Shown: in pieces, positions 42,877-55,145 of the stretch
Numbering within the stretch: position 1 is the first letter of the stretch
How the letters are laid out: every line of letters begins with the position of its first letter
Assembly (NCBI GenBank): GCA_965208905.1
Contig: OZ242365.1
Location: 1,056,001 to 1,120,000 of the forward strand
Direction of reading: 5' to 3'
Source of the DNA: Nitrosopumilaceae archaeon
Lineage (GTDB): Archaea > Thermoproteota > Nitrososphaeria > Nitrososphaerales > Nitrosopumilaceae
DNA length: 64,000 nucleotides
Notes under the pieces: generated by a model
Told to the model about the DNA's origin: nothing
Seen by the model: only the letters and a program-made list of their open reading frames with translations
Database searches by the model: none
Made by a program: the position numbers and the translations under genes

Positions 42877-43447
42877 TTATATACCTGGGTATGCACGCGT
42901 AACATACGCGTACATTCCTAGATGCTTCATGGCGCTTGATGTTTTGGGTCGATTGCACGCTTGATTCTCACGCCGCCGTCTGGCGTCCGGAACTGCACAA
43001 ACAGGTGGCTTCCGGGTCCGGCCCATTTCACGCCTTTCGAGGGCTATTCCTTCCCCCGCGGGAACCTCTCGTCTGGTTCCCCGTTGTATGATGTTTACCG
43101 ACGCATTGCCGTCGGCATTTGCTACATGCCCACATCCCATACACTTGAACATCTCCCCATTTCGGTTCTCCTTGGATATGTAGCCGCATATACTGCACTC
43201 CTGGCTCGTGTGTTTTGGACTTACCTCTACTACATGGATGCCCAGCCGCTCTGCGATAATGCGTATTTTTCGCAGTATTGCATAATGCCGAATAAACCGC
43301 ATACCGCGATTCAGACCTGTCTTGTGCCTGCCACCGCGCCTGCTCATGGCCTCTAAGTTGAGCTGCTCGACATATATTACATCCACGCCCTCGCATATCT
43401 TCTTGGCTAGAAGCCACTCCGCATACTCGCGGTCATTCGCATTACCC
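42877..43447 (-). pseudogene. tnpB: tnpB, 3' part (RuvC-II, Zn finger, RuvC-III)
   Basis: IYVEQL, TSQECSICG...CMGCG, NADGNAS; cut off by IS3 at 43448. Confidence 0.92.
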
Positions 43448-44694
43448 TGGTGGGGACCCCGCTAGAATGAGAACACTCACGTTCATACAGCTTAAAGTCG
43501 TAATGGGAGGGATGATGCCATGGTAAGAACAAAGTTTACTCCAGACCAAAAGATCCAGATCGTTTTGGAATCAATCAAGACCAATATTGGCACGGCCGAG
43601 CTGTGCCGCAAGCACAACGTTCATCCCCAAACGTTTCAAGCCTGGCGGCAAAAGTTCATGGACGCAGGCAAGTCCGGACTGACCCATCACGGAAAGAAGG
43701 ATCCGATAAAGGCCATCAAAAAGGAGAACGGCGACCTAAAGCGAATCATAGGGGATCTGACAATCGCAAACGACGCTTTAAAAAAAACCTTGGAGGCAAG
43801 CAACGATTGAACGCGGTAAAAATCATGCAGGAACAACATTTGAGCCTGCGCAAGTCGCTAGGGTATGCGGGCGTATCCAGGCGCCAATGGTACTACAAAC
43901 CCAAGCCCAGAGACATGGGATTGAATCCGGATATATTGAGCACTGTGCTAGATACGAGCAGAAAGAGGCCCACGTACGGCACACGGCGCATGGCGGCCCA
44001 GATAACGCGCGATACGGGAATTGTGGTGAACCGCAAGCAGATACAGCGGATATATCGCAAAATGGGCTACATCCAGCCACAAAATACCAAAAACGACATC
44101 ATTCGAGCGGGTCAAAAGCTCTTCAAACCCAAAGCCCCACACCAGTTGTGGGAGACGGACATCACATACATCTGGTGCGGTATAGACGGCTGGTGCTACT
44201 GCTTCAACGTAATTGACTGCTTTACGCGCAAGTGGATCGCCTACGCGTTTGATGTCAATGCCACACGAGACATTGCAATCACCTCAATCACCAACGCGGT
44301 TGCCGCAGAGAAACCTGACTGCTCACAATTACGATTGCGTACGGACAACGGCAACCAGTATACGAGCCGCGACTTTAGACATGCGGTTCAGGCCCTTGGC
44401 ATCGGCAAACATGAATTCATCTACAAGAATACGCCGGAGCAGAACGGACATGTCGAATCATTTCACAAGACGCTGAAAAAGGAATACATCTGGCCGCACG
44501 AGTTTGCGAACTATCAGGAGGCAGAGACGATCATTGCAAAGGCCTTTGTAGATTACAACACCGAGAGGATTCATTCCTCTATCGGATACATGACACCAGT
44601 AGAATTTGCCGAACAGTTGGAGATGACAAATAAATGATGGAAGATGTATGTAAAATCATGCCGAAAACAGTAACATTCTATGGGGTCCACTCCA
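43448..44694 (+). mobile_element. IS3-family IS, copy 3, inserted in tnpB
   Basis: Same length, ends and ORF translations as copy 1; TSD ACCC at 43444-43447 and 44695-44698. Confidence 0.96.
43520..44637 (+). CDS. IS3 transposase OrfAB (-1 frameshift)
   Basis: Same translation as copy 1. Confidence 0.93.
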
Positions 44695-44769
44695 ACCCCG
44701 GTTGTACTTTTCTCGTTTATGTTTAATTTTACGTGTTGAGTTTGAGTGTTTGTTGTGGTGCGATATGGT
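44695..44769 (-). pseudogene. tnpB: tnpB, short middle fragment
   Basis: TISHHNKHSNSTRKIKHKREKYNRG joins both other fragments in frame. Confidence 0.85.
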
Positions 44770-44942
44770 GGGACTGGGAAGAAATGCTGACCTAGGGAAA
44801 GTGCTGACCCGAAGTGGGAAGAAATGCTGACCTGACCTATATTTCCACTCCGACCCCAATTTCCACTCCGCTAATTTGACCAATGTTTCCACTCCAGACA
44901 TGAACTACCCTAATGTTGAATAAAAGATGAAAAATATACTAC

Positions 44943-46250
44943 TTATTTTTGCTTGGCCTTGGCAGCAGCCTGTATGAGAGTCATCCACTTGTTATCACCC
45001 TGTACAATTATACCGGCGGCCTCTGCCGGAGTCTGGTTATCTGATAATCCAAGGTGTGAACGCACAAAGTTATGATATAACTTCAAACCTGTTATGATAC
45101 CCGAATCCTCGCGCTTTAGACCGCGCGTTACCTTCTCACGGTGACGTAACGTGTTCCCATTGAACGACTCCATCTGGTTGTTGTGATGTATGCCATCAAA
45201 CGCGACATCGTTTACATGTTGGGTTTCTTTGTGCAGAAAGTTCTTGGCTTTGTATTGTCTCTTCCATGCATTGTGGAAGTTTGTAGCACCGTCTGATATC
45301 AGGGTATCCGGAACCTTGCCTGCTATACATTTGGCCTGCTTGAACATTGGAGCCACATCATCATTGCCCTTATGTTCAGCCACCATCTTTGAAATCCAGT
45401 ATCTTGTATCTGAATCCAACATGGCAAACAAGTATCGCTTGTTGCCCTTAATTTTCAAGTGCAGCTCATCCGTTCTCCATTCCTCTCCGACCTGTAGTTG
45501 TATTGTATCAACATAGGACTCCATTAGTTTGGCGTAGGTAGCGGCCCAATTCTGTATGGTTCTGTAGGTTATCTTGGGGCCGTTCTGCCCCAACTGTCTT
45601 GCCACCTTCCTGGATGACAATCCACTAAAGTACATTCCTACTGCCGTACAGATGTCATCCGGCGTGGTATGCTTCATCTCAAAGCCAAGGTTCTGAATGA
45701 ATCGTCTCCCACATGTTTTGCAGCCGTACTGCTGTTTCTTGCGACACTTGCCCTTCTTGATGATATTAGTAGAGTCACAGAACTTGCATCTGGTGTGATC
45801 ATGCGGCTGTATTATACGCCGTTCACCATTATGCCACTGGACTGCTTGAATGTGTTTGCATGTACTCCCTGTATGTATGTGGTCCGGGCATGAACACATC
45901 CACCCGCTACCGAAATTACGCACCTCGTATGATTCATCAGTACTCTGTGATTTGACTAGATAGTGGTCGTGCGATATACGTTCTACCTGATTATTGGCCT
46001 GATGTATCATCATGCCGCGGTCAGCACGCGCCTTTGCGCCAAGATGCTCTTCTAATGCATATGCATGCTTGCAATATATCGCATCATCAGGACATGTACA
46101 GTTCCAGCTTCGGGCTGTCCGTGTCAACGTATACTTGACGCATGGTTCAGTCTGTGAACACACCTCGTATGTAGAATCATCTACTTGACGAATCTGATTC
46201 TTTTGTTTTGTTATCAATATGCCTCGTTGTTTTCTGTAATTCATTTGCAT
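44943..46250 (-). CDS. DDE transposase (IS6/IS1-like core) with two N-terminal SWIM fingers, Zn ribbon and HTH
   Basis: CTCPD..CKH, CSCPD..CKH, CKFC..CKTC, GLSSRKVA..TIQNW, WRTDE, ISDG, NNQMESFN; start uncertain. Confidence 0.88.
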   Translation of the reverse strand: MQMNYRKQRGILITKQKNQIRQVDDSTYEVCSQTEPCVKYTLTRTARSWNCTCPDDAIYCKHAYALEEHLGAKARADRGMMIHQANNQVERISHDHYLVKSQSTDESYEVRNFGSGWMCSCPDHIHTGSTCKHIQAVQWHNGERRIIQPHDHTRCKFCDSTNIIKKGKCRKKQQYGCKTCGRRFIQNLGFEMKHTTPDDICTAVGMYFSGLSSRKVARQLGQNGPKITYRTIQNWAATYAKLMESYVDTIQLQVGEEWRTDELHLKIKGNKRYLFAMLDSDTRYWISKMVAEHKGNDDVAPMFKQAKCIAGKVPDTLISDGATNFHNAWKRQYKAKNFLHKETQHVNDVAFDGIHHNNQMESFNGNTLRHREKVTRGLKREDSGIITGLKLYHNFVRSHLGLSDNQTPAEAAGIIVQGDNKWMTLIQAAAKAKQK

Positions 46251-46366
46251 GGTAGCGTATCGGCACCATTTAAGGCGGTAAAAGTCAATCTTGAGGTATA
46301 GGAGTACTCCTGTGAACGCTGTGGGCATACATAAAATGGACTATCTGGCAACTCCACGGGTTGTAA

Positions 46367-46513
46367 GGGACTGGGAAGAAACGCTGACCCAGAGTCGAAA
46401 TGGAGGTCTTGTACGATTAGGAGTGCGGAGTGGAAATTGTACGTCTGGGGCGGAAACATAGGTCAAATCACTACGCGCTATTTTGGGGCACACGCTATAT
46501 TTGGGACAGTTCA
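46367..46513. repeat. Internal transposon-end-like repeat cluster B
   Basis: GGGACTGGGAAGAAACGCTGACC plus CGGAGTGGAAA..GGTCA-type motifs and TTTGGGACAG. Confidence 0.85.
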
Positions 46514-46777
46514 AAGAGTGGTCCACTCAACATCCCGTGAAAACCGAGCTATGACTATCATCTTTGAGGAGTGCTTGAGTCCAGAGATAACATGACAGTA
46601 GTGTGTGTACTGGCCGGAGGGAGGCTGTAAAAACCAGTCCTATAAAGGGGCCTAGACTAGAAATGGCATAAGGTGTGTGGTAGGTGCATGAGGTCAGTTT
46701 TAGTGAACTGAGTATAAGGCTATGTACCATCATTTTCTGTCTTAAACATTGAAATTAACGATAAACGTTCGTGACAT

Positions 46778-47255
46778 ATGCGAGGCTATTATGCGATACA
46801 GGTTTGTATGAATGGGCATGTTATCACTGATCGGCATAGGTGGGACGACGTCGAATATTGTACAGAATGTGGGGAGAAGACAATAATCAAATGTCAAAAT
46901 CAAAGCTGTGGTGAGGAGATACGTGGTGAGTCAACTACCCCCTCCAATTTCCCGCTCGCTGTAGGTTGGCCCAGCACCAAATAACTGTCATAAATGTGGA
47001 GAACCATACCCTTGGACACGGGATAAGATCGAAGCACTTCAGAAGTTGATAGAGTTGTCATCTCTGGACAAGGAACACAAAAAATACGTGTTGGATGAGG
47101 TTGTACACATCATAAGTGAAACACCAAAGACCAAAATCATTTGTGATGTATTTAAGAAAATCATTCCTGAAGATGAATCATCGATTTGGTCTGTACTCAT
47201 AGAGGTGGCTACACAGAAGGCAAAGGACATTCTAACCGGCGTGTCACCGACATAG
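46778..47255 (+). pseudogene. DUF2321-like Zn-finger protein, frameshifted near 46970
   Basis: QVCMNGHVIT..CTECG..IRG, continuing in a shifted frame as CHKCGEPYPWT. Confidence 0.75.
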
Positions 47256-47322
47256 ATGGCAATTTACATGAAACCATCCAGATTTCCACAATGGGAGCCA
47301 AGAAAAGAGTAGCCTTTGTTAA

Positions 47323-50274
47323 TCATCCTTCCAAATCTTTCCGACCCAAATGCTTCTCATGTACCAACCAATCGTATATCTGTTCTAAGTTGTCCACACT
47401 CAATCCCAATATATCCGAAACACGCCTGTCAATCTCTTGTCGCACCTTATCACTATCCACCATATTGATGGGCTTCATCTCCTTTTTACAAAGGTCATCG
47501 AAAACCCCATCCAACTGTGTGATGATGTGTTCGTCCATGCTAGCAAAATCCGGCACAGGCATTTGTCTGCATGACGTTAGTGTCATCAAGCCACGTTCAG
47601 TTTGCTGTGAGTTGGATACGAACCAATATGTGAGTATTCCAAAGATTGAGTTAAACCATACCATAAACGCTTTTTCATGATTACTATCATTCAGTCTGAC
47701 GTTGGGCCATGCACTACCACCAACTGTCTCCATCTCCGTATATGCGGCAATCAATCGTTGGGAGGTATACCGAACATACAGGTTGATGTGTGTATGTGTT
47801 CTTGTATCCCAAACATTGTTTACCTGTTCCTTTGTTGCATCTTGTTTTTTCTCTAATGAATAATCCGGAGGCACAACCATAATTCGTTGTGTTTTAGCAT
47901 CATTTCCCCACAAACACTGGTATCTTTGTCTGCGCCCGTATCTGATTTTTATAAAAGGACCCTGCGGAGTACCATCATGTTTGGTTCCAATTATGTCAAG
48001 GTGATGTTTCCCCATGTACGATATTTCTCCAATAGTAGTCATTTCAATACCCAACCCACCATTTATCAGACTGTATGCAGTCTGTAAGAGAAATATGTTT
48101 GATGTTCTGGTCAACATCCATCGTCCATCTTCCACAGTACAGTCTAACATATCGCCAACATGTGTGTCTCCTAAAACAAGTGACGTTCCACCCATGCAAT
48201 GCTCAATTCTATTGGCCGGTGTTTTTCGTATGATTTTTGCAACCTCCAACCCTCCAAGACGTGACGTAGGTAGTTTATTGAGCAATACAAATTTAATTCT
48301 GGGAAATTGCCCTTCTGGCCACTTGGTTGTTCTTTTACGGGCTATCAATACCACCTCCTCCATTCCTGTACCGGCAGAGAAGGTCAACTCATCAGTTCCT
48401 GCTGAACGACGCAGTCTGACTACTGTTATGTCATCGTACCATTGGTTCAATACTTCACGTATGTCTGACCATGCCGAACCAGAAGTCATGGTAGCTGGCA
48501 GTATGAAGCCCATCACACCACCTGGTTTTAGTTTCCGATGGGTGATTGCAATAAAGTATGATGCCAGACCGGCATGTCCATGAGATCCGGTTTCGCAGAA
48601 GAGGTTAGCGTTGGTTTTTCCCATATCACTCTGTATATCCGGCGGTATACCAAATACAGCAAAAGGAGGAACCGGGTCGGTTCGTCCACTGCCGTGGTTT
48701 GTAGCCTTTACGAATGGTGGATTCATGAGTACAAAATCAAACGATTCAGAACGAAGCCTCACACTCGTAAGATTCTGTCCGCCTTGTCCACCATGTCTTT
48801 TACCAACATCTCCAGATAGTGCCTCTATCTCAAGGCTTATGGAGTCTTCACTAATTTCTGAATCTACATCTCTAATAAGATCCAACGAGCCCAATGAACG
48901 AACAGGTTTACGAGGCCGTGTCTTTACCGGCATCGGTGTCCCTATTGGCATCTGGTATATTCTGGCTTCTTTGAATATGTTCGCGGGATATAACACAGCC
49001 AAGTTGGAAACTGTCAAATGTGTTGCGGTCGGCATTATATCAAAACCCCACAATACATCAGCCATTACTGTGGGGTGCATCTTTGCAATATTCTCGTCAT
49101 TGGCATGACAATGTATTATGTGGTTATATGCGGCGGTCAGCAACATGCCGGTGCCACACGCAAAGTCAGCTATGCGGAGTTTCTCTATGCGAGATTTATC
49201 ATTCCAAATTTTATCACTTATCGGGGGCAATACAAGTTCGGCTAAAAGTGTAGCAGCTTCAGGTCTAGTATAGAATGAGGCCGATTTTTTTCGTTCAATT
49301 AGGTCATTCTGATATAATGCACCATATACATCGCCAGAATTCTGCATGCCGAGACTCATTACAACTGAGACTGTTTGAATTATCACATCTATAATGACAG
49401 ATGCAGATCGTTCCGGTATCACATTAAACAGGTCGCGTGTAATCTCAAAGACTGGACCATAATTGATGTCCAATACAGATTCCATACCATTCATGATGTC
49501 ATATTTGGTGGGCTTGTTTGTCAGAGAACCAATGGATGTAAGTGTCTTTATTTCGTCTAGATGTGAAGATAGTTCTTCATAAAAGATACTTCCATTGAGT
49601 AGCATCAACGCGGCCATAGACATAGCTTGTCTGTCACTCATACCATACAGGGTGTCAGTACTCTTGTTATAGCCCAACAAACTGATTATCTCTGACTTGA
49701 CACCGTTGTCAGCATCAACCAATGTATTGGCTATACTGTTTATCTGCTTCTGAATAATTTCTGTATACTCATCTTCAACATTGCGTGATACTATGGAAAG
49801 GCGTGTCGCCGTTATAACATCGGTTATGTTCCCCCTTAGGTATCCGTTGGTGGGAAATCTGTTGGTGCGGTCATGTACAAAATATTCCAGCTCGGAACTA
49901 CCAAACTTTGTTCGAAAGTCATCCGCGTCATCTGCATGCGCAAGCTCGTCGGGGAACAGCACCCCGACTATGGCTGACGGTGTGATGTTACCTTCCTCCA
50001 ACGTTACTTCTAAACGGTCGCCGACCTCCCGCTCCAGATTGCTCCTGTCTGTCTCCAACTCAATAATTACGGCTTGGTTTACGCTTCCTGTCCCCTTTGG
50101 TCGCACTATGATGTCAGGTCGCTTGCCGTGTTTACCAGAGACGGTCCGTGTCCTCTCGGCCTTTGCAGTACACCAGCCACTGTCATTTATGACCTCTGCT
50201 ACCCAGGGGTTGATTGCAGACTCTACGGCCCGGCCACCACGACGCGTTATGGGAAGCAACCTCCGTCCGGCCAC
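47323..50274 (-). CDS. Fused restriction endonuclease / N6-adenine methyltransferase (type IIG/IIL-like)
   Basis: N-terminal PDII..IIELE, FYT, DFACGTG, MNPPF, C-terminal specificity-like region. Confidence 0.85.
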   Translation of the reverse strand: MAGRRLLPITRRGGRAVESAINPWVAEVINDSGWCTAKAERTRTVSGKHGKRPDIIVRPKGTGSVNQAVIIELETDRSNLEREVGDRLEVTLEEGNITPSAIVGVLFPDELAHADDADDFRTKFGSSELEYFVHDRTNRFPTNGYLRGNITDVITATRLSIVSRNVEDEYTEIIQKQINSIANTLVDADNGVKSEIISLLGYNKSTDTLYGMSDRQAMSMAALMLLNGSIFYEELSSHLDEIKTLTSIGSLTNKPTKYDIMNGMESVLDINYGPVFEITRDLFNVIPERSASVIIDVIIQTVSVVMSLGMQNSGDVYGALYQNDLIERKKSASFYTRPEAATLLAELVLPPISDKIWNDKSRIEKLRIADFACGTGMLLTAAYNHIIHCHANDENIAKMHPTVMADVLWGFDIMPTATHLTVSNLAVLYPANIFKEARIYQMPIGTPMPVKTRPRKPVRSLGSLDLIRDVDSEISEDSISLEIEALSGDVGKRHGGQGGQNLTSVRLRSESFDFVLMNPPFVKATNHGSGRTDPVPPFAVFGIPPDIQSDMGKTNANLFCETGSHGHAGLASYFIAITHRKLKPGGVMGFILPATMTSGSAWSDIREVLNQWYDDITVVRLRRSAGTDELTFSAGTGMEEVVLIARKRTTKWPEGQFPRIKFVLLNKLPTSRLGGLEVAKIIRKTPANRIEHCMGGTSLVLGDTHVGDMLDCTVEDGRWMLTRTSNIFLLQTAYSLINGGLGIEMTTIGEISYMGKHHLDIIGTKHDGTPQGPFIKIRYGRRQRYQCLWGNDAKTQRIMVVPPDYSLEKKQDATKEQVNNVWDTRTHTHINLYVRYTSQRLIAAYTEMETVGGSAWPNVRLNDSNHEKAFMVWFNSIFGILTYWFVSNSQQTERGLMTLTSCRQMPVPDFASMDEHIITQLDGVFDDLCKKEMKPINMVDSDKVRQEIDRRVSDILGLSVDNLEQIYDWLVHEKHLGRKDLEG

Positions 50275-50623
50275 CTCTTTGCAGTATTAAATCTACCAAA
50301 TGTTTTGTAGCTTGCTTTATAGTGCCAATAGACGCACCACAACCGTGATGATTGCCCACCGCTAGTTGTTCGTGCCGCCAAGCACTGTTCGTGCCGCCAA
50401 GCACTGTTCGTGCCGCCAAGCACTGTTCAGCTTCCAAGGTCTGCGAGCACCCTCTCTGCATTAAGAGAATGTCTATCCTTGACTGCGTCTCCCCAATTTC
50501 CAACACCGTCGCCTTTCTCTTGGATTCAATCTTTGATGCCAGCCCACAGTAGATAGCCCGATGCTGGCCTTGTTTATGCCGGATAATGTTGCCCTTGATG
50601 GTCTTGAAGTTGATGGAACTCAT
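50183..50623 (-). pseudogene. Small hypothetical gene, probably frameshifted by a 19-bp tandem repeat
   Basis: ORF runs through the repeat 50367-50428; with one unit it would end ...EQCLAARTTSGGQSSRLWCVYWHYK...GGCFP*. Confidence 0.45.
50367..50428. repeat. 19-bp tandem repeat x3.3 (TGTTCGTGCCGCCAAGCAC)
   Basis: Three perfect units plus TGTTC. Confidence 0.95.
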
Positions 50624-50737
50624 ATAGAAAATATAGACGATCTGTTAATAAGGTTATACGAACAGCCGCCTCCAAACTCAGTGTTGTAAGAACTTTTAAC
50701 CTAACTGAACTATTAAAATTATGATCTGGAATTGTCC

Positions 50738-50867
50738 TGACCTATGTTTCCGCCTCAGACCAACATTTCCACTCCGCTAAAACATACCTCGTTTCCACTC
50801 CGCACGCCTGATGTATAACTAATGTACTCCAACTACTATTTCCAGTCTAGGCACCACTTTGGGACAG
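50738..50867. repeat. Internal repeat cluster C
   Basis: TGACCTATGTTTCCGCCTC, two TTTCCACTCCG motifs, and one arm of a 24-bp inverted repeat. Confidence 0.85.
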
Positions 50868-50935
50868 GCGCCATTAATGGGACAGTCCACACAATCAATC
50901 CCCTTTTAATATAATGTCGTTTTGATAACCACATT

Positions 50936-51454
50936 GTGGACTGGTACGCGGAGATTTTACCATCAATTATGTCAGCATCGATAGCGATTGCCATAATAAC
51001 TACACTTGTGCTAGCAAGGAAGGACAAGAAACGCGAGTGCCGCGAGAGGCAAGCTACGGAGGTAAAGATGCTGCTTGATGCACACATGAACTTATGGAGT
51101 GGCCTGCGGCAGATGGAGGCGCATGCTGCTGGTATACCTGATAGGAATAAGCAGTCGGGTAGTCACGCCCTGTTGGTAGACGACTTCAAGTGGCTTCGCG
51201 ACGTATTACGCAACGAGTCGCTCATGTTGGCGCCCGAGATACATGATGAATACGTCAAGTTTCTCAAAGAACCCCTGAAGCAGGCAATGTTTGGCCTCGG
51301 CAGCTATATCCCCGCTAGCTCTCACATATATGGTGCGTCAGATACACCGTACTTGGCTAACCTCTCCAAAATGCAGCAAATAGCCGAGAAGCAGTGGAAG
51401 AAGTATGAGTCCGAATACCGCATGCTTGGTGGAAAGTATCCGCACGCCAGATGA
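50936..51454 (+). CDS. Hypothetical protein with N-terminal TM helix
   Basis: 172-aa ORF with hydrophobic N-terminus. Confidence 0.7.
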   Translation: MDWYAEILPSIMSASIAIAIITTLVLARKDKKRECRERQATEVKMLLDAHMNLWSGLRQMEAHAAGIPDRNKQSGSHALLVDDFKWLRDVLRNESLMLAPEIHDEYVKFLKEPLKQAMFGLGSYIPASSHIYGASDTPYLANLSKMQQIAEKQWKKYESEYRMLGGKYPHAR

Positions 51455-51476
51455 TCTTCCAATACCTCAACCCACA

Positions 51477-52430
51477 TTACGCCTCAACAGTAGGATAGTC
51501 AACATACTCGAACTTCAGCGACTCTATCATGGCCTTGGCCTCCTCAACACATTCAAACTTGGGCGAACACACCAGATAACCTATACCGCGCCTCTCCTCC
51601 GTAAACCCGCCTTGGCCGACCCGAAGGGCTATGACACACCGGTTCTCCGGCAGATGAAGTCCCCACTCTTTTGGTATGAATATACTCCACGGCTGCTGCC
51701 AGTGTTCCATGTATGCAACAACCACTCCCGGGCGGTACCTGCGCATCTGCCCCATCTTGCGCGTCAGGGTGTGGAAGTTGGCATCGGCATCGTCTCCCCT
51801 ACCTCCGTATTTTGTGACGTACTTCATTTTGGGGCGGTACTTGCCCGGATCAATGCAGAACTCGCCCCCCACATACACACCGCGCTTCATGGTACATGCC
51901 TCTTCGTATGCAAGCGGACCAGTGCCGTACCAAACCTCTACGTCCCACCTGTTGTTGTTCATGTCTTCAATGTCAATGTCAAATGTATGTTTGTTGTCAC
52001 AGTCCATATGTTCCACCTCGATGTCCACTATTCGGAATCCTGCCTCGTAGAACCACTTGGTGACGCGCGCCTGAACTGCAATCCCGCCCCCATCACTGCC
52101 TGTCTGCAAGCGATCCAACTCCCTGTCGACATCGCCCCGCAACTCGTAGATGTTTTGGGCCGTCTCAAATTTCCGCATCAGGTTGGGGTGTAGCCGGCGC
52201 AATTCGTCAATGTCGGGTGCATCCTGCCGCTCCAATATGTGTCGCAGGGTTCGTGTTCGACACAACTGTCCACGGTAGTCCGTGATCTGTTTTGTGATGG
52301 AATCGTACTTCTTGGCTTGGCCCTCCCGGCAAATATTGGACTGGTTTGTCTTCCACCACTCCAGCAACTCGTCCAACGTTTTGAGGCCCGCGCATGGGTC
52401 AAATTTTGCCATGCTCTGTTCCCGATGCAC
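51477..52430 (-). CDS. Hypothetical protein, possible PD-(D/E)XK nuclease fold
   Basis: FDIDIEDMNNNRWDVEV acidic motif; function tentative. Confidence 0.55.
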   Translation of the reverse strand: MHREQSMAKFDPCAGLKTLDELLEWWKTNQSNICREGQAKKYDSITKQITDYRGQLCRTRTLRHILERQDAPDIDELRRLHPNLMRKFETAQNIYELRGDVDRELDRLQTGSDGGGIAVQARVTKWFYEAGFRIVDIEVEHMDCDNKHTFDIDIEDMNNNRWDVEVWYGTGPLAYEEACTMKRGVYVGGEFCIDPGKYRPKMKYVTKYGGRGDDADANFHTLTRKMGQMRRYRPGVVVAYMEHWQQPWSIFIPKEWGLHLPENRCVIALRVGQGGFTEERRGIGYLVCSPKFECVEEAKAMIESLKFEYVDYPTVEA

Positions 52431-52461
52431 ATCTTCTATTAAGGTTTAGCTTTGACCTGAA

Positions 52462-52585
52462 CTGTCCCAAAGTGGTGCCTAGACTAGATATAGGGCCATG
52501 TTTAGTGGAGGGGAGATTATACGTCTAAGGTGGAAACGTAGGTCACCAACTTTCCAATTCTGGGTCAGTGTTTCTTACCAGTCCA
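52462..52585. repeat. Internal repeat cluster D
   Basis: Second arm of the 24-bp inverted repeat, GGTGGAAACGTAGGTCA, right-end-like GGGTCAGTGTTTCTTACCAGTCC. Confidence 0.85.
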
Positions 52586-52652
52586 GATTATGATGTGTAG
52601 TGTTTGTCCAAATAACACCCGGAATTCAGAAAAACCACGTCACCCGCAGATA

Positions 52653-53555
52653 TTAGGTTCGGCGCTTCCCAGTCTTACATTGTTTAAGTTTCAGCAGCAG
52701 TCTTTTAATATCCTTCTCATCTCTTACAGGCGCATAGTAGTTGCCCGTACCGTGGTGGCCAGGATCGGATACATCCTTTACAAATTCATCTTCCGTAAAA
52801 TCACCCTTCCGACCAAAATAGACTTTGATCTTACTACGCTGAACTATCGCGGTGCATAGTAGATACTCACCATCACGCCCAAATCCGACATAGTATTTCG
52901 TTGGCAATTCCTTTACTCCTGAGAATGTAGAGAGCATCCTATCACGAAGTGTCTTGTATAGTGGGTTTTTGGATTCATGTGGATTGGTGTTCGAAGTTCG
53001 TTCTTGCTCTGTGTTGGTTTCAAGTATTTTAGGTGTAGTCTTTACGGCCGTATCTATTGGACCGCGTTTACCAGCTATATACCTCAGTGTCACAATCCCA
53101 TTTTCAAACTTCCTTAACTCATACAGGCATTCATTATCTTTTTTACCCGCAGCGTATATCTGATCCTTGTTAAACTCTGGTGCGACGATTATTGCATAGA
53201 TGTTATTCCACTTGAATGAATTCGGATCCTCATGGGCGTTATACGATTTATTGTATGCCAGAGTCAGTGTAGCGCGATTATCATCCATCTTATTGAGATA
53301 GTTTTCGGCCTGCTGGCGAACCGTATCAGAACGCCTGTTCTTGTACTCGATTGCTACAAAAGTATGGGCTTGGGGGTCATATACAACCGTATCTGGAATT
53401 TTGTCTGATATTTGCATCTTACTTTTGACCAACTTTAGATTTGGAAATAGTATGTGTAGATTATCTTCGAACCACTTGTGTTGTTTACTCTCGTCGGGAA
53501 AGTTAACATCGTCCAACTCACAACATCCTTTGGTGGATGTGTAGAATGTACGCAT
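52653..53555 (-). CDS. NucS-like endonuclease + DUF5655-like domain
   Basis: E..PDTVVYD..VAIEYK..Q..Y, IIVAPEF, TKYYVGF, GHHGTGNY. Confidence 0.78.
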   Translation of the reverse strand: MRTFYTSTKGCCELDDVNFPDESKQHKWFEDNLHILFPNLKLVKSKMQISDKIPDTVVYDPQAHTFVAIEYKNRRSDTVRQQAENYLNKMDDNRATLTLAYNKSYNAHEDPNSFKWNNIYAIIVAPEFNKDQIYAAGKKDNECLYELRKFENGIVTLRYIAGKRGPIDTAVKTTPKILETNTEQERTSNTNPHESKNPLYKTLRDRMLSTFSGVKELPTKYYVGFGRDGEYLLCTAIVQRSKIKVYFGRKGDFTEDEFVKDVSDPGHHGTGNYYAPVRDEKDIKRLLLKLKQCKTGKRRT

Positions 53556-53752
53556 ACGTTTTTGGTATAATGGCGATATTTAATATTGTTGTAAATGTGA
53601 AGTCATGCCTGGACTAGTAATGTAGGTATGCAACCACCATTTCTACTCCGCTAAAACAGATCTCATTTCCAGTCCGGACGCCTGATGTATAAAGACCTGC
53701 GTTTCCAGTCCGGGTCAGTACTTTCCCTAGGTCAGCATTTCTTCCCAGTTCC

Positions 53753-54456
53753 GATATGGTACGGCGCGTCTCATCATTCCATGTACGGTTCGTGCGGAAT
53801 GCGGTTGCTGTATCGTATGATGTGATATTTGAGGTGTTATGGTCTGTCTTGCACACGACGGTCGGATTTGTTATCCCCCTGTCTATGCCGGCAACAACCC
53901 CGGTCTTGGCGCACCGTTCGGGTGCCGGTACGTCATATGTTATGTGTAGCCGGTAGATATGGTCACACGACTTGACATGCACCCACGACTTTGGTGTAAC
54001 CTGCACCAAACGGAAAGACCTGGCGCCATACAGCCAGTTGTGTGGAAATTGATATGACTGCTCCTCGCACAACTCAACAACACCAAGGCCCGGCAATGAC
54101 GCGTGCCTGTTGTCCACATATACAGGCTGCACATCACATGATACTGCCTTTGTATTATCGCGCTTTCTGGAGCGGAAACTTAGTTTGCCGTTGCCGTATT
54201 TGTTCGAGACATCCGCAGCAGTGCGGGCTTGGTGTATGGCAGTATTTTGGTATATACGCTCTACTGTTTGCAGCCACTGCACGGAACGCCTCATCTTGGT
54301 GAACTCCCTGGAGAGATCATATGTAGTGAGTGTGGGGTTAGTAAGCAGCCGCTCCACGGCCCAGTTGTACACGAACCGCTGTGAGTCCCGTATTTTAGAT
54401 ATGTGACGCGCCTGAGAGCGTGTCAGGTCTATGCGGAAACCATAAGACCGATACAT
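53753..54456 (-). pseudogene. tnpB: tnpB, 5' part (HTH/REC-WED, RuvC-I)
   Basis: YGFRI..RFVYNWA, GIDRG; cut by the 9-kb transposon at RRTIS. Confidence 0.92.
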
Positions 54457-54533
54457 GTAGTTTTATACACTATAATACTTTATAAATATGTATCCTACAG
54501 GACTTGCCTTGCCTGCCCAGGCATATAATTCCC

Positions 54534-55145
54534 TTGGCACATGTAGATGGATTTAATATTCATAATACAACAAGAGCATCAATGATACATACCAAGTGGT
54601 CAGATGACTTTATGGGGATAGCGTATAGATACTTTGATCTGCGCATGAATATTGTTCCCTTACTGCCCCATAGAAAGAAGGCATTAAAGATGTGGCAGGA
54701 TGTAATACATTGGTGGTATGATGCATCCATTCGTGTCAGGTTTATAGAGTATCCAGACCAGTACAGGTTTGTCATAGGTGCCGAGTCGCGAAGACCCGAC
54801 TCGAATGTGTCATTTTACAAAATACTACACAAATCGCCACACTATGAGCGATTCAAGACAGGGTATGGTGATGCAGCATATCTGCGTCTGGGAGAGTACT
54901 CAACAAAGAGACTACAGGATGTAAAGGATTCAGATGTATGCAACTGTGGTCATCCGGCAGGAGACCATGCAGATGATGAGAGTACAGAGTGTCTGGAGGA
55001 CGGGTGTGATTGTAATGAGTTTGTTCAGACGCAGGTGTACATGTTGCGGCGTAAAAAGACCATAACAGACATTGTATTCTTGGATTATACGGATATAGAA
55101 AAAGATCCATTATCTTGGAACTGTATAAACTCCAATCCTAGTTGA
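54534..55145 (+). CDS. Hypothetical protein with Cys/His-rich motif
   Basis: CNCGH..H..C..CDC; the probable TTG start is the first codon of the TSD. Confidence 0.7.
   Translation: MAHVDGFNIHNTTRASMIHTKWSDDFMGIAYRYFDLRMNIVPLLPHRKKALKMWQDVIHWWYDASIRVRFIEYPDQYRFVIGAESRRPDSNVSFYKILHKSPHYERFKTGYGDAAYLRLGEYSTKRLQDVKDSDVCNCGHPAGDHADDESTECLEDGCDCNEFVQTQVYMLRRKKTITDIVFLDYTDIEKDPLSWNCINSNPS

Follow-up and report, generated by a model that had tools for sequence, protein, structure and literature searches.

Introduction

Insertion sequences (IS) of the IS6 family are 789–880 bp long, with long clostridial forms of 1.2–1.7 kb that have an N-terminal zinc finger (Varani et al. 2021, PMC7986276; Harmer and Hall 2019, PMC6807381). 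In the sections of these reviews cited here, the elements have one gene, ISDsp3 is named as the only member with a passenger gene, and other cargo is mobilised between a pair of IS copies (PMC7986276, PMC6807381). The ends start with GG and have a G at position 7 (PMC6807381, in the part cited). In Bacteria, restriction-modification units with inverted repeats and an 8-bp duplication have been proven by empty sites in X. oryzae and N. gonorrhoeae, and, as far as the cited pages go, no archaeal case was left after the screen (Furuta, Abe and Kobayashi 2010, PMC2853133). According to the cited section of a survey, no cargo-carrying DNA transposons had been found in Archaea including thaumarchaea (Krupovic et al. 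2019, PMC6563490); the word IS6 is absent from the main text of that paper. Here we describe an element at positions 44770–53752 (8,983 bp) of a stretch of 64,000 nt from the genome of a Nitrosopumilaceae archaeon, in the following called the window. This element is very probably an autonomous cargo ('unit') transposon with an IS6-type transposase core, ends of the GG...G7 kind and an 8-bp target duplication, to which a zinc ribbon and a SWIM finger are added. All coordinates are window positions unless they are marked as genome positions or as those of an L-locus.

Outer ends and empty target sites

The features that define the element are the following.

44762..44769, no strand: left copy of the target duplication, GATATGGT, exact 8 bp
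44770..44820, + strand: left terminal inverted repeat (TIR), on the transposase side, starting GGGACTG
44842..44895, + strand: three subterminal TTTCCACTCC repeats of the left end (scan with the pattern TTTCYASTCC)
44943..46328, − strand: transposase, 461 amino acids (aa) (Pfam and NCBIfam matches, homolog alignment)
53640..53711, + strand: three subterminal TTTC(C/T)A(C/G)TCC repeats of the right end (same scan)
53702..53752, − strand: right TIR, an inverted-repeat match to the left arm
53753..53760, no strand: right copy of the target duplication, GATATGGT, exact 8 bp

Both outer inverted ends are 51 nt long and complementary at 46 of 51 positions (90 %; 44770–44820 against 53702–53752). An earlier sequence-only reading of this DNA had proposed one pair of 42-bp TIRs with 40 matches and GG starts. 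The starts and the matching stretch are real (95.2 % over 42 in a blastn alignment of 53711–53752 with the left end), but the stretch is only the core of the 51-nt arms. A G stands at position 7 in both ends, which start with GGGACTG and GGAACTG, respectively. The terminal 23-mer of the left end (44770–44792) recurs 40 nt inward (44810–44832), with a shorter copy in between (44793–44809). The pattern TTTCYASTCC has nine matches in the window, against 0.35 expected, and all nine lie inside the element, eight of them on the + strand. Three belong to the left end, three to the right end, two stand beside an inner end at 50888 and one is part of M1, a miniature piece described below. Because the subterminal repeats of both ends are on the same strand, left and right end are not mirror images; they are built unequally, like those of transposons whose two ends have different roles.

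The chance of an exact 8/8 match at fixed flanks is about 1 in 65,536. For an empty-site test, positions 44770–53760 were removed by script and the joined sequence was compared with the whole genome. Seven paralogs of the target IS that have no interruption (82–91 % identity) align with it continuously through the joint. The site of these paralogs is a single GATATGGT in four cases, GAGATGGT in two and GATATGGT followed by G in one. The 8-bp duplication of the earlier reading is thereby confirmed, since it is exact on both sides of the element and present as a single copy or one-base variant in the paralogs. As the seven target paralogs are continuous at exactly this point, all DNA between the outer ends is inserted, and the element is a clean insertion into a tnpB gene.

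In contigs from two sequencing runs of a single sample, coverage of the element is even; this sample is possibly the source, so these data are not independent. The right junction is crossed by 33 nt in a 2,926-nt contig of those runs, no bridging piece for the left junction is among those listed from them, and none of their contigs skips the element. Two runs of other studies contain only the part of an IS3-family IS next to the element, a short end fragment and pieces of tnpB.

The transposase

Judging by public relatives with 433 aa, the start of the 461-aa transposase is probably M28 or M29; public records call relatives 'IS1/IS6 family transposase'. Residues 283–421 match Pfam DDE_Tnp_IS240 with 45.5 bits (cut-off 27). 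Of two SWIM fingers, the first (C77, C79, C86, H88) reaches 31.4 bits with PF04434 in the whole protein and 28 bits as a fragment (cut-off 19.6), and the second (C145, C147, C157, H159) stays under the cut-off with 14.1 bits (E 0.035). In an alignment of 26 homologs, made up of members from this genome and from other genomes, the ligands of the second finger, the zinc ribbon cysteines C181, C184, C203 and C206 and the DDE residues D287, D346 and E387 are invariant in all 26. Owing to this invariance, SWIM–zinc ribbon–helix-turn-helix (HTH)–DDE is the architecture of the family, with the first SWIM finger as an extra that three of the aligned proteins from this genome possess and that was also found in two more genomes of the genus. 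The order SWIM-SWIM-zinc ribbon-HTH-DDE, which had been read from the sequence, thus holds, with an IS6-type core, a first finger above cut-off and invariant ligands in the other modules.

The zinc ribbon at 180–212 gives 25.6 and 26.2 bits with NCBIfam zinc-domain models (cut-offs 28 and 27). The IS1 model matches residues 181–358 with 46.3 bits (cut-off 100) and the Pfam IS1595 core model gives 19.5 bits (cut-off 27). In an AlphaFold model with a mean confidence (pLDDT) of 67.9, and below 50 in the catalytic loops, two similar strand-rich modules, each followed by a helix, are predicted at 46–77 and 115–145. A profile search of PDB sequences returned nothing below E 0.2.

The 5′ third of the transposase gene (45810–46320) has 84 % DNA identity to two paralogs. 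As these two whole proteins are only 64–67 % identical to this transposase, recombination among paralogs is suggested.

The family within this genome

Twelve further long paralogs of the transposase are present in this genome (41–78 % identity), two of which contain an internal stop. With at most three mismatches allowed, the end motif is found 38 times in the genome and a reversed control pattern not once. Each subfamily has its own end sequence, and all of them start with GGnnCTG. Seven elements of 3,360–8,983 bp are bounded by such ends, three of them with an 8-bp duplication of their own; among these elements, E18k has perfect 50-nt ends and an 8-bp duplication. Furthermore, two elements of 3,602 bp (genome 1337692–1341293 and 1851328–1854929), each with a transposase, a methylase and a NotI-like nuclease, show no mismatch to each other, have unrelated flanks and lie in direct orientation 514 kb apart. 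The identical sequence of these copies in different surroundings shows directly that the transposase travels with the restriction-modification genes. Mobility as a unit is thus observed for the family, in the identical 3,602-bp copies and in E18k; for the 9-kb copy the evidence of unit status is confined to the outer duplication and the empty sites.

In all 12 loci examined, namely this element and 11 paralogs (every one except the 41 % paralog at 156690), the 5′ side of the transposase bears a DNA-methylase or restriction-modification gene.

Window locus, 5′ side: Type IIG-like fusion
18k locus, 5′ side: N6_N4 methylase and a 235-aa open reading frame (ORF)
1130k locus, 5′ side: D12 methylase and HaeIII-family nuclease
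157k locus, 5′ side: methylase-HNH fusion
1368k locus, 5′ side: methylase-HNH fusion
1337k and 1851k loci, 5′ side: methylase and NotI-like nuclease
1257k locus, 5′ side: Type III Mod and Res
1284k locus, 5′ side: Type III Mod and Res
2095k locus, 5′ side: methylase
2145k locus, 5′ side: Type ISP enzyme
1708k locus, 5′ side: toxin-antitoxin-type genes, with a methylase 5.6 kb away

A SocA/Panacea-type antitoxin gene was also seen beside the transposase at L039 7440–8233, which is the 1708k element, and at L110 4399–5376. Because some members carry an antitoxin gene instead of or besides a methylase, the cargo is more broadly described as addictive modules.

The 8-bp sequence GTCCGTTG stands left of the first 3,602-bp copy and right of the second, and another right end is located 351 bp beyond the first copy. 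By analogy with the structures described in the cited part of PMC7986276, the shared GTCCGTTG hints at an IS6-type cointegrate or pseudo-compound structure.

A miniature element of 171 bp with ends of the 2095k subfamily exists in eight complete copies (genome 347829–347999, 470002–470172, 470822–470992, 474681–474851, 489410–489580, 644882–645052, 1779678–1779848 and 1928312–1928482) and as a solo end. Its terminal 23 nt are identical in every copy, and two complete copies are each surrounded by an 8-bp duplication of their own. Among the remaining six, flanks match one another as reverse complements, with four copies linked in a chain and two as a pair, a pattern typical of inversions between the copies.

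Mosaic interior of the 9-kb element

The interior contains at least six extra end-like sequences, which the single TIR pair of the sequence-only reading had missed, although the outer pair itself is real. The recognisable pieces are listed here.

46367..46512, + strand: M1, 146 bp, similar to a miniature inverted-repeat transposable element (MITE), whose A-type end (GGGACTGGGAAGAAAC...) points to the right and whose B-type end (...TTTGGGACAGTTC) points to the left
46620..46664, + strand: decayed B-type left end, 31 nt of it 77 % complementary to 50838–50868
50731..50888, + strand: right end of a B-type relative, ...GGGACAGTCC (repeat matches)
52459..52584, − strand: M2, 126 bp, MITE-like and inverted relative to M1, with the B-type end left and the A-type end right

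Inner ends of the A type are found at 46367, in the orientation of the left end, and at 52584, inverted. Those of the B type (GGACTGTCCCA...) are located at 46512, 50888 and 52459, with the decayed one at about 46620; B-type ends are those that adjoin the two closest paralogs (78 % and 64 % identity). Over 60 nt, the subterminal repeats within 50731..50888 share 88 % identity with the ones at the outer right end. M1 and M2 resemble A/B hybrid miniature elements elsewhere in the genome, and the flanks of M1 and M2 show no reverse-complement pairs between them. It is concluded that at least three family members contributed to the 9-kb element, either before or after the insertion at GATATGGT.

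A/B hybrid pieces of 90–146 bp were also observed at genome 1587848–1587977 and 1472758–1472847. They are thus recurrent, and none of them has a duplication.

Cargo genes and target gene

The cargo DNA is unique in this genome. It comprises the following features.

46778..46984, + strand: truncated DUF2321-like ORF, 68 aa (43 bits, model positions 2–51 of 157)
47323..50274, − strand: fused restriction-methylase, probably of the Type IIG kind, 983 aa (Eco57I/N6_Mtase and PADLOC matches)
50183..50623, − strand: ORF146, a putative gene that overlaps the start of the restriction-methylase by 92 nt
50367..50428, no strand: perfect 19-nt tandem repeat, 3.3 copies, inside ORF146
50936..51454, + strand: ORF172, no family
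51477..52430, − strand: ORF317, a genuine gene to judge by a homolog in genome G117 (47 % identity)
52653..53555, − strand: ORF300, PADLOC defence candidate PDC-S18 (full-length PADLOC match)

The 983-aa fusion is matched by Eco57I (29.5 bits), N6_Mtase (22 bits) and the methyltransferase and IIG models of PADLOC, with the methylase part at about residues 300–650, and is on this basis probably an enzyme of the Type IIG kind. For its N-terminal 325 aa, Pfam, NCBIfam and PADLOC gave no matching family, nucleases included. A 66 % identical homolog in genome G270 has no transposase nearby, and ORF146 has a 39 % tblastn match beside that homolog. ORF300 matches the PDC-S18 model with E 7e-46 (residues 1–292 on positions 1–299 of 302) and, weakly, DUF5655 in its C-terminal part and an HSDR_N-type nuclease in its N-terminal part. 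Homologs of ORF300 occur in G301 (55 %) and in G070 (93 % over 110 aa), in the latter beside a family end of another type. In this way the fused methylase, the DUF2321-like and the DUF5655-like cargo named in the earlier reading were all recovered, as the Eco57I/N6_Mtase fusion, the 68-aa fragment and PDC-S18. Its possible PD-(D/E)XK protein found no counterpart, as ORF317, ORF172 and ORF146 have no match in Pfam, NCBIfam or PADLOC. ORF317 belongs only to unnamed clusters in the Atlas, and an ORF262 on the + strand is the shadow of the overlapping ORF317.

The 19-nt repeat sits 93–154 nt upstream of the start codon of the restriction-methylase. Perfect repeats with a period of 19 nt and unrelated sequences were also noticed just upstream of methylase or restriction genes at several loci, among them 6.2 copies in the 1368k element, 2.9 copies before the Type III mod gene at 1284k and 3.1 copies before the G270 homolog of the restriction-methylase. 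A 21-copy array stands beside a transposase fragment in G301, and several 19-nt units contain a short hairpin. Outside the window the arrays have these positions.

L037 2646–2762: 19-nt array
L040 2714–2768: 19-nt array
L102 10778–10836: 19-nt array
L114 7158–7556: 19-nt array

A change of copy number that fuses ORF146 to the frame of the restriction-methylase was ruled out. Such a fusion is impossible because the frame is already closed further downstream, at about 50287.

The target gene and its second insertion are described by two features.

42880..54534, − strand: tnpB of an IS200/IS605-type element, in three pieces (alignment to a 474-aa paralog)
about 43447–44694: IS3-family IS (ORF 43603..44637, + strand; rve, rve_3, HTH_21)

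Residues 4–271 of tnpB are encoded at 54534..53731, residues 262–286 at 44769..44695 and residues 284–474 at 43452..42880. The gene is in three pieces because the cargo element and the IS3-family IS have both inserted into it. Hence the 'otherwise undamaged' tnpB of the earlier reading does not hold, since the IS3-family IS breaks the gene a second time 75 bp from the cargo element. The tnpB flank alignments overlap by 3 bp at that insertion. The right-hand 625–628 bp of the IS3-family IS have at least 14 further copies with 99.5–100 % identity.

Relatives in other genomes

Matches to the transposase at E 1e-20 or better were obtained in 127 of 301 genomes of the class and in 32 of 67 genera, counts which take in three unpublished genomes. 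Twenty foreign loci were sampled from complete or near-complete genomes. Inverted repeats surround the transposase in eight of them, giving elements of 2,326–6,671 bp, and two blast methods detected no inverted repeat in the other twelve. Among the eight mapped elements, five have an 8-bp duplication and five carry restriction-modification cargo; two contain only an ORF of unknown function. The homologs are not simple IS of about 1.5 kb, as a cargo ORF of at least 90 aa is absent from only one of the eight, which has no cargo. In three of the twelve loci without mapped ends a methylase stands beside the transposase. The proposal of a family of unit transposons that carry restriction and defence genes in thaumarchaea is supported by these relatives of 2.3–6.7 kb, which have transposase and cargo within their own ends.

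In a species collection with one genome per species at least 585 relatives were found, some of which are labelled Bathyarchaeia, Methanoregula and Thermoplasmata metagenome-assembled genome. Of 78 loci returned, 44 had enough DNA on both sides and were used for counting restriction-related genes within 4.2 kb of the transposase. The restriction link is strong in this genome and in nearer relatives and only moderate further out.

Two further observations concern members with other neighbours. A unit of 3,803 bp (3457–7259 in L106 and L107, genome G153) is 100 % identical at two loci; besides the transposase it includes an ORF of 408 aa that weakly matches DDE_Tnp_1, so that its cargo is not a restriction system. 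Distant homologs with 38–39 % identity at L087 (G078) and L091 (G193) share the same neighbourhood in two genera, with a glycine-transporter gene and an ORF of about 170 aa of unknown function. No inverted ends were found at these two loci, which may represent old immobile or domesticated copies.

Alternative explanations

Several results weigh against the interpretation as an IS6-like unit transposon with restriction cargo. The NCBIfam IS6 equivalog model matches residues 216–422 with 85.7 bits, which is below its cut-off of 125, and a Foldseek search of the PDB gave nothing at E 0.001 or better, with only weak rows for retroviral integrase and ISCth4. The archaeal IS6 group is itself contested in the cited part of one review (PMC6807381). 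A replicative route is suggested by analogy, and the split GTCCGTTG duplication could be explained by serial inversions, which are frequent here according to the miniature elements. Neither this genome nor the 10 genomes of the genus that were searched contain a second copy of the 9-kb unit, and no 8-bp duplications surround M1, M2 or the pairs 46367/52584 and 46620/50888. With regard to cargo, the restriction link is weaker outside this genome, where it is seen in 8 of the 20 foreign loci, and in 7 of 9 among those at least 46 % identical to the query. Across the 44 loci restriction-related genes are present on the 5′ side in 10 and on the 3′ (control) side in 4 (Fisher p 0.14).

The whole 9 kb probably moved in one piece. 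The statement of the sequence-only reading that the element moved recently as one unit is too strong, since the unit is single-copy and inner ends without duplications leave room for growth in place. In such a history, which we consider rather unlikely, a smaller member of about 3 kb, for example the transposase with the PDC-S18 gene, would have inserted at GATATGGT first. The 6.2-kb middle (46367–52584), which lies between two inverted miniature pieces, would have arrived or been rearranged later, and the 9-kb unit would never have moved as a whole. The six or more extra ends inside the element fit this course of events, as do the single-copy state, the PDC-S18 gene that adjoins a family end in G070 too, the pair of restriction-methylase and ORF146 that exists in G270 without transposase, and the size of typical members (3.2–3.7 kb). 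However, the inner end pairs have no 8-bp duplication, unlike fresh insertions, and members of 5.2–6.7 kb with intact duplications exist (L074, L089), so that large units do move.

It is very unlikely that the association with restriction genes is an effect of neighbourhood, in which the transposase lands in or near defence islands and the restriction-modification genes are neighbours and not cargo. Four of the 44 loci do have restriction-related genes on the 3′ (outside) side, L135 is placed in an island with BREX- and CRISPR-related genes, and the per-locus excess is not significant. Against this, transposase and restriction-modification genes are enclosed together by mapped ends with duplications in E18k, E157k, L074, L075 and L089, and both are included in the two identical 3,602-bp copies. 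Counted per ORF, restriction-related genes are also in excess inside (15 of 131, against 4 of 146 outside, p 0.007), although the ORFs are not independent. Hardly credible, finally, is a chance composite in which outer ends of two elements, a left one with the transposase and a right one from a solo end or miniature element, bracket resident genes: the genome does contain many solo ends and miniature elements of this type, but the 8-bp duplication is exact, the cargo is missing from the seven target paralogs, and their continuity at exactly that point largely refutes it.

Proposed mechanism and significance

For the preferred reading, a unit transposon, the following course can be proposed. 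The transposase would bind the repeated end sites via its zinc, HTH and SWIM modules, pair a left with a right end and join the 3′ ends to a target cut with an 8-bp stagger. By analogy with IS6, the product would probably be a replicative cointegrate that is resolved by host recombination. A mosaic such as the present one may be born when related elements and their miniature derivatives insert into or next to each other; whichever compatible ends lie outermost could then move all DNA between them, by which cargo would be gained. Restriction-modification cargo, able to kill cells that lose it, would stabilise the element, and the element would in turn give the cargo mobility.

Taken together, and more tentatively than its single parts, this widespread archaeal family may have specialised in carrying restriction-modification and other addictive defence modules. 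It would gain cargo by such 'end capture', and the 19-nt repeats in front of several of its methylase genes would serve as an on/off switch of the cargo. Its marks in this joint reading would be an IS6-like core with a conserved SWIM finger, unlike ends made of repeated sites, and end capture among co-resident subfamilies. If this is true, the spread of the family would account for the abundance of transposases as well as restriction systems in some ammonia oxidisers associated with sponges.

The family is large and apparently undescribed so far. A literature search yielded no description of it, and it may stand as plain IS in the supplementary IS tables of PMC6563490. With seven elements mapped in this genome and eight elsewhere, it fills the gap of archaeal cargo transposons and gives restriction-modification systems a direct route of spread within and between archaeal genomes. 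Enrichments of transposases and of restriction systems in sponge-associated thaumarchaea were reported separately in the cited part of PMC7848895. The family would be one explanation for both. In addition, the transposase, whose ends are short and defined and whose cargo reaches about 9 kb, is a candidate genetic tool for ammonia-oxidising archaea, which are not known to have such tools.

Comparison with known systems

With the IS6 family, as portrayed in the cited sections of the reviews, the element shares the Pfam core match, an HTH before the core, the GG/G7 ends and the 8-bp duplication, and some IS6 members add an N-terminal zinc finger as well; the GG/G7 pattern is also present in other end types of this genome. 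Unlike these IS6 members, it has 9 kb and at least six genes with the cargo inside a single element, its relatives measure 2.3–6.7 kb, the ends extend over 40–60 nt with repeated sites, and a SWIM finger is conserved. The zinc ribbon at 180–212 is a feature in common with IS1 and IS1595, from which the transposase differs in that all scores are under the curated cut-offs. Transposases of the IS1 and IS1595 families have the order zinc ribbon–HTH–DDE, and some IS1595 members carry passenger genes. Eukaryotic Mutator-like (MULE) transposases combine DDE and SWIM finger, the latter after the core. Here, in contrast, the SWIM finger precedes the core, which is of the IS6 and not of the Mutator/IS256 type.

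The bacterial restriction-modification units are, in the account cited, isolated cases without a transposase of their own, whereas the present element is autonomous and part of a family (PMC2853133). From Tn3- and Tn7-type transposons, as described in the part of the source cited, it is set apart by an unrelated transposase, by much smaller elements and by the lack of any visible resolvase or TnsABC-type helpers (PMC8649781). What it has in common with them is the organisation as a single element with terminal repeats, several transposase sites per end and variable defence cargo (PMC8649781).

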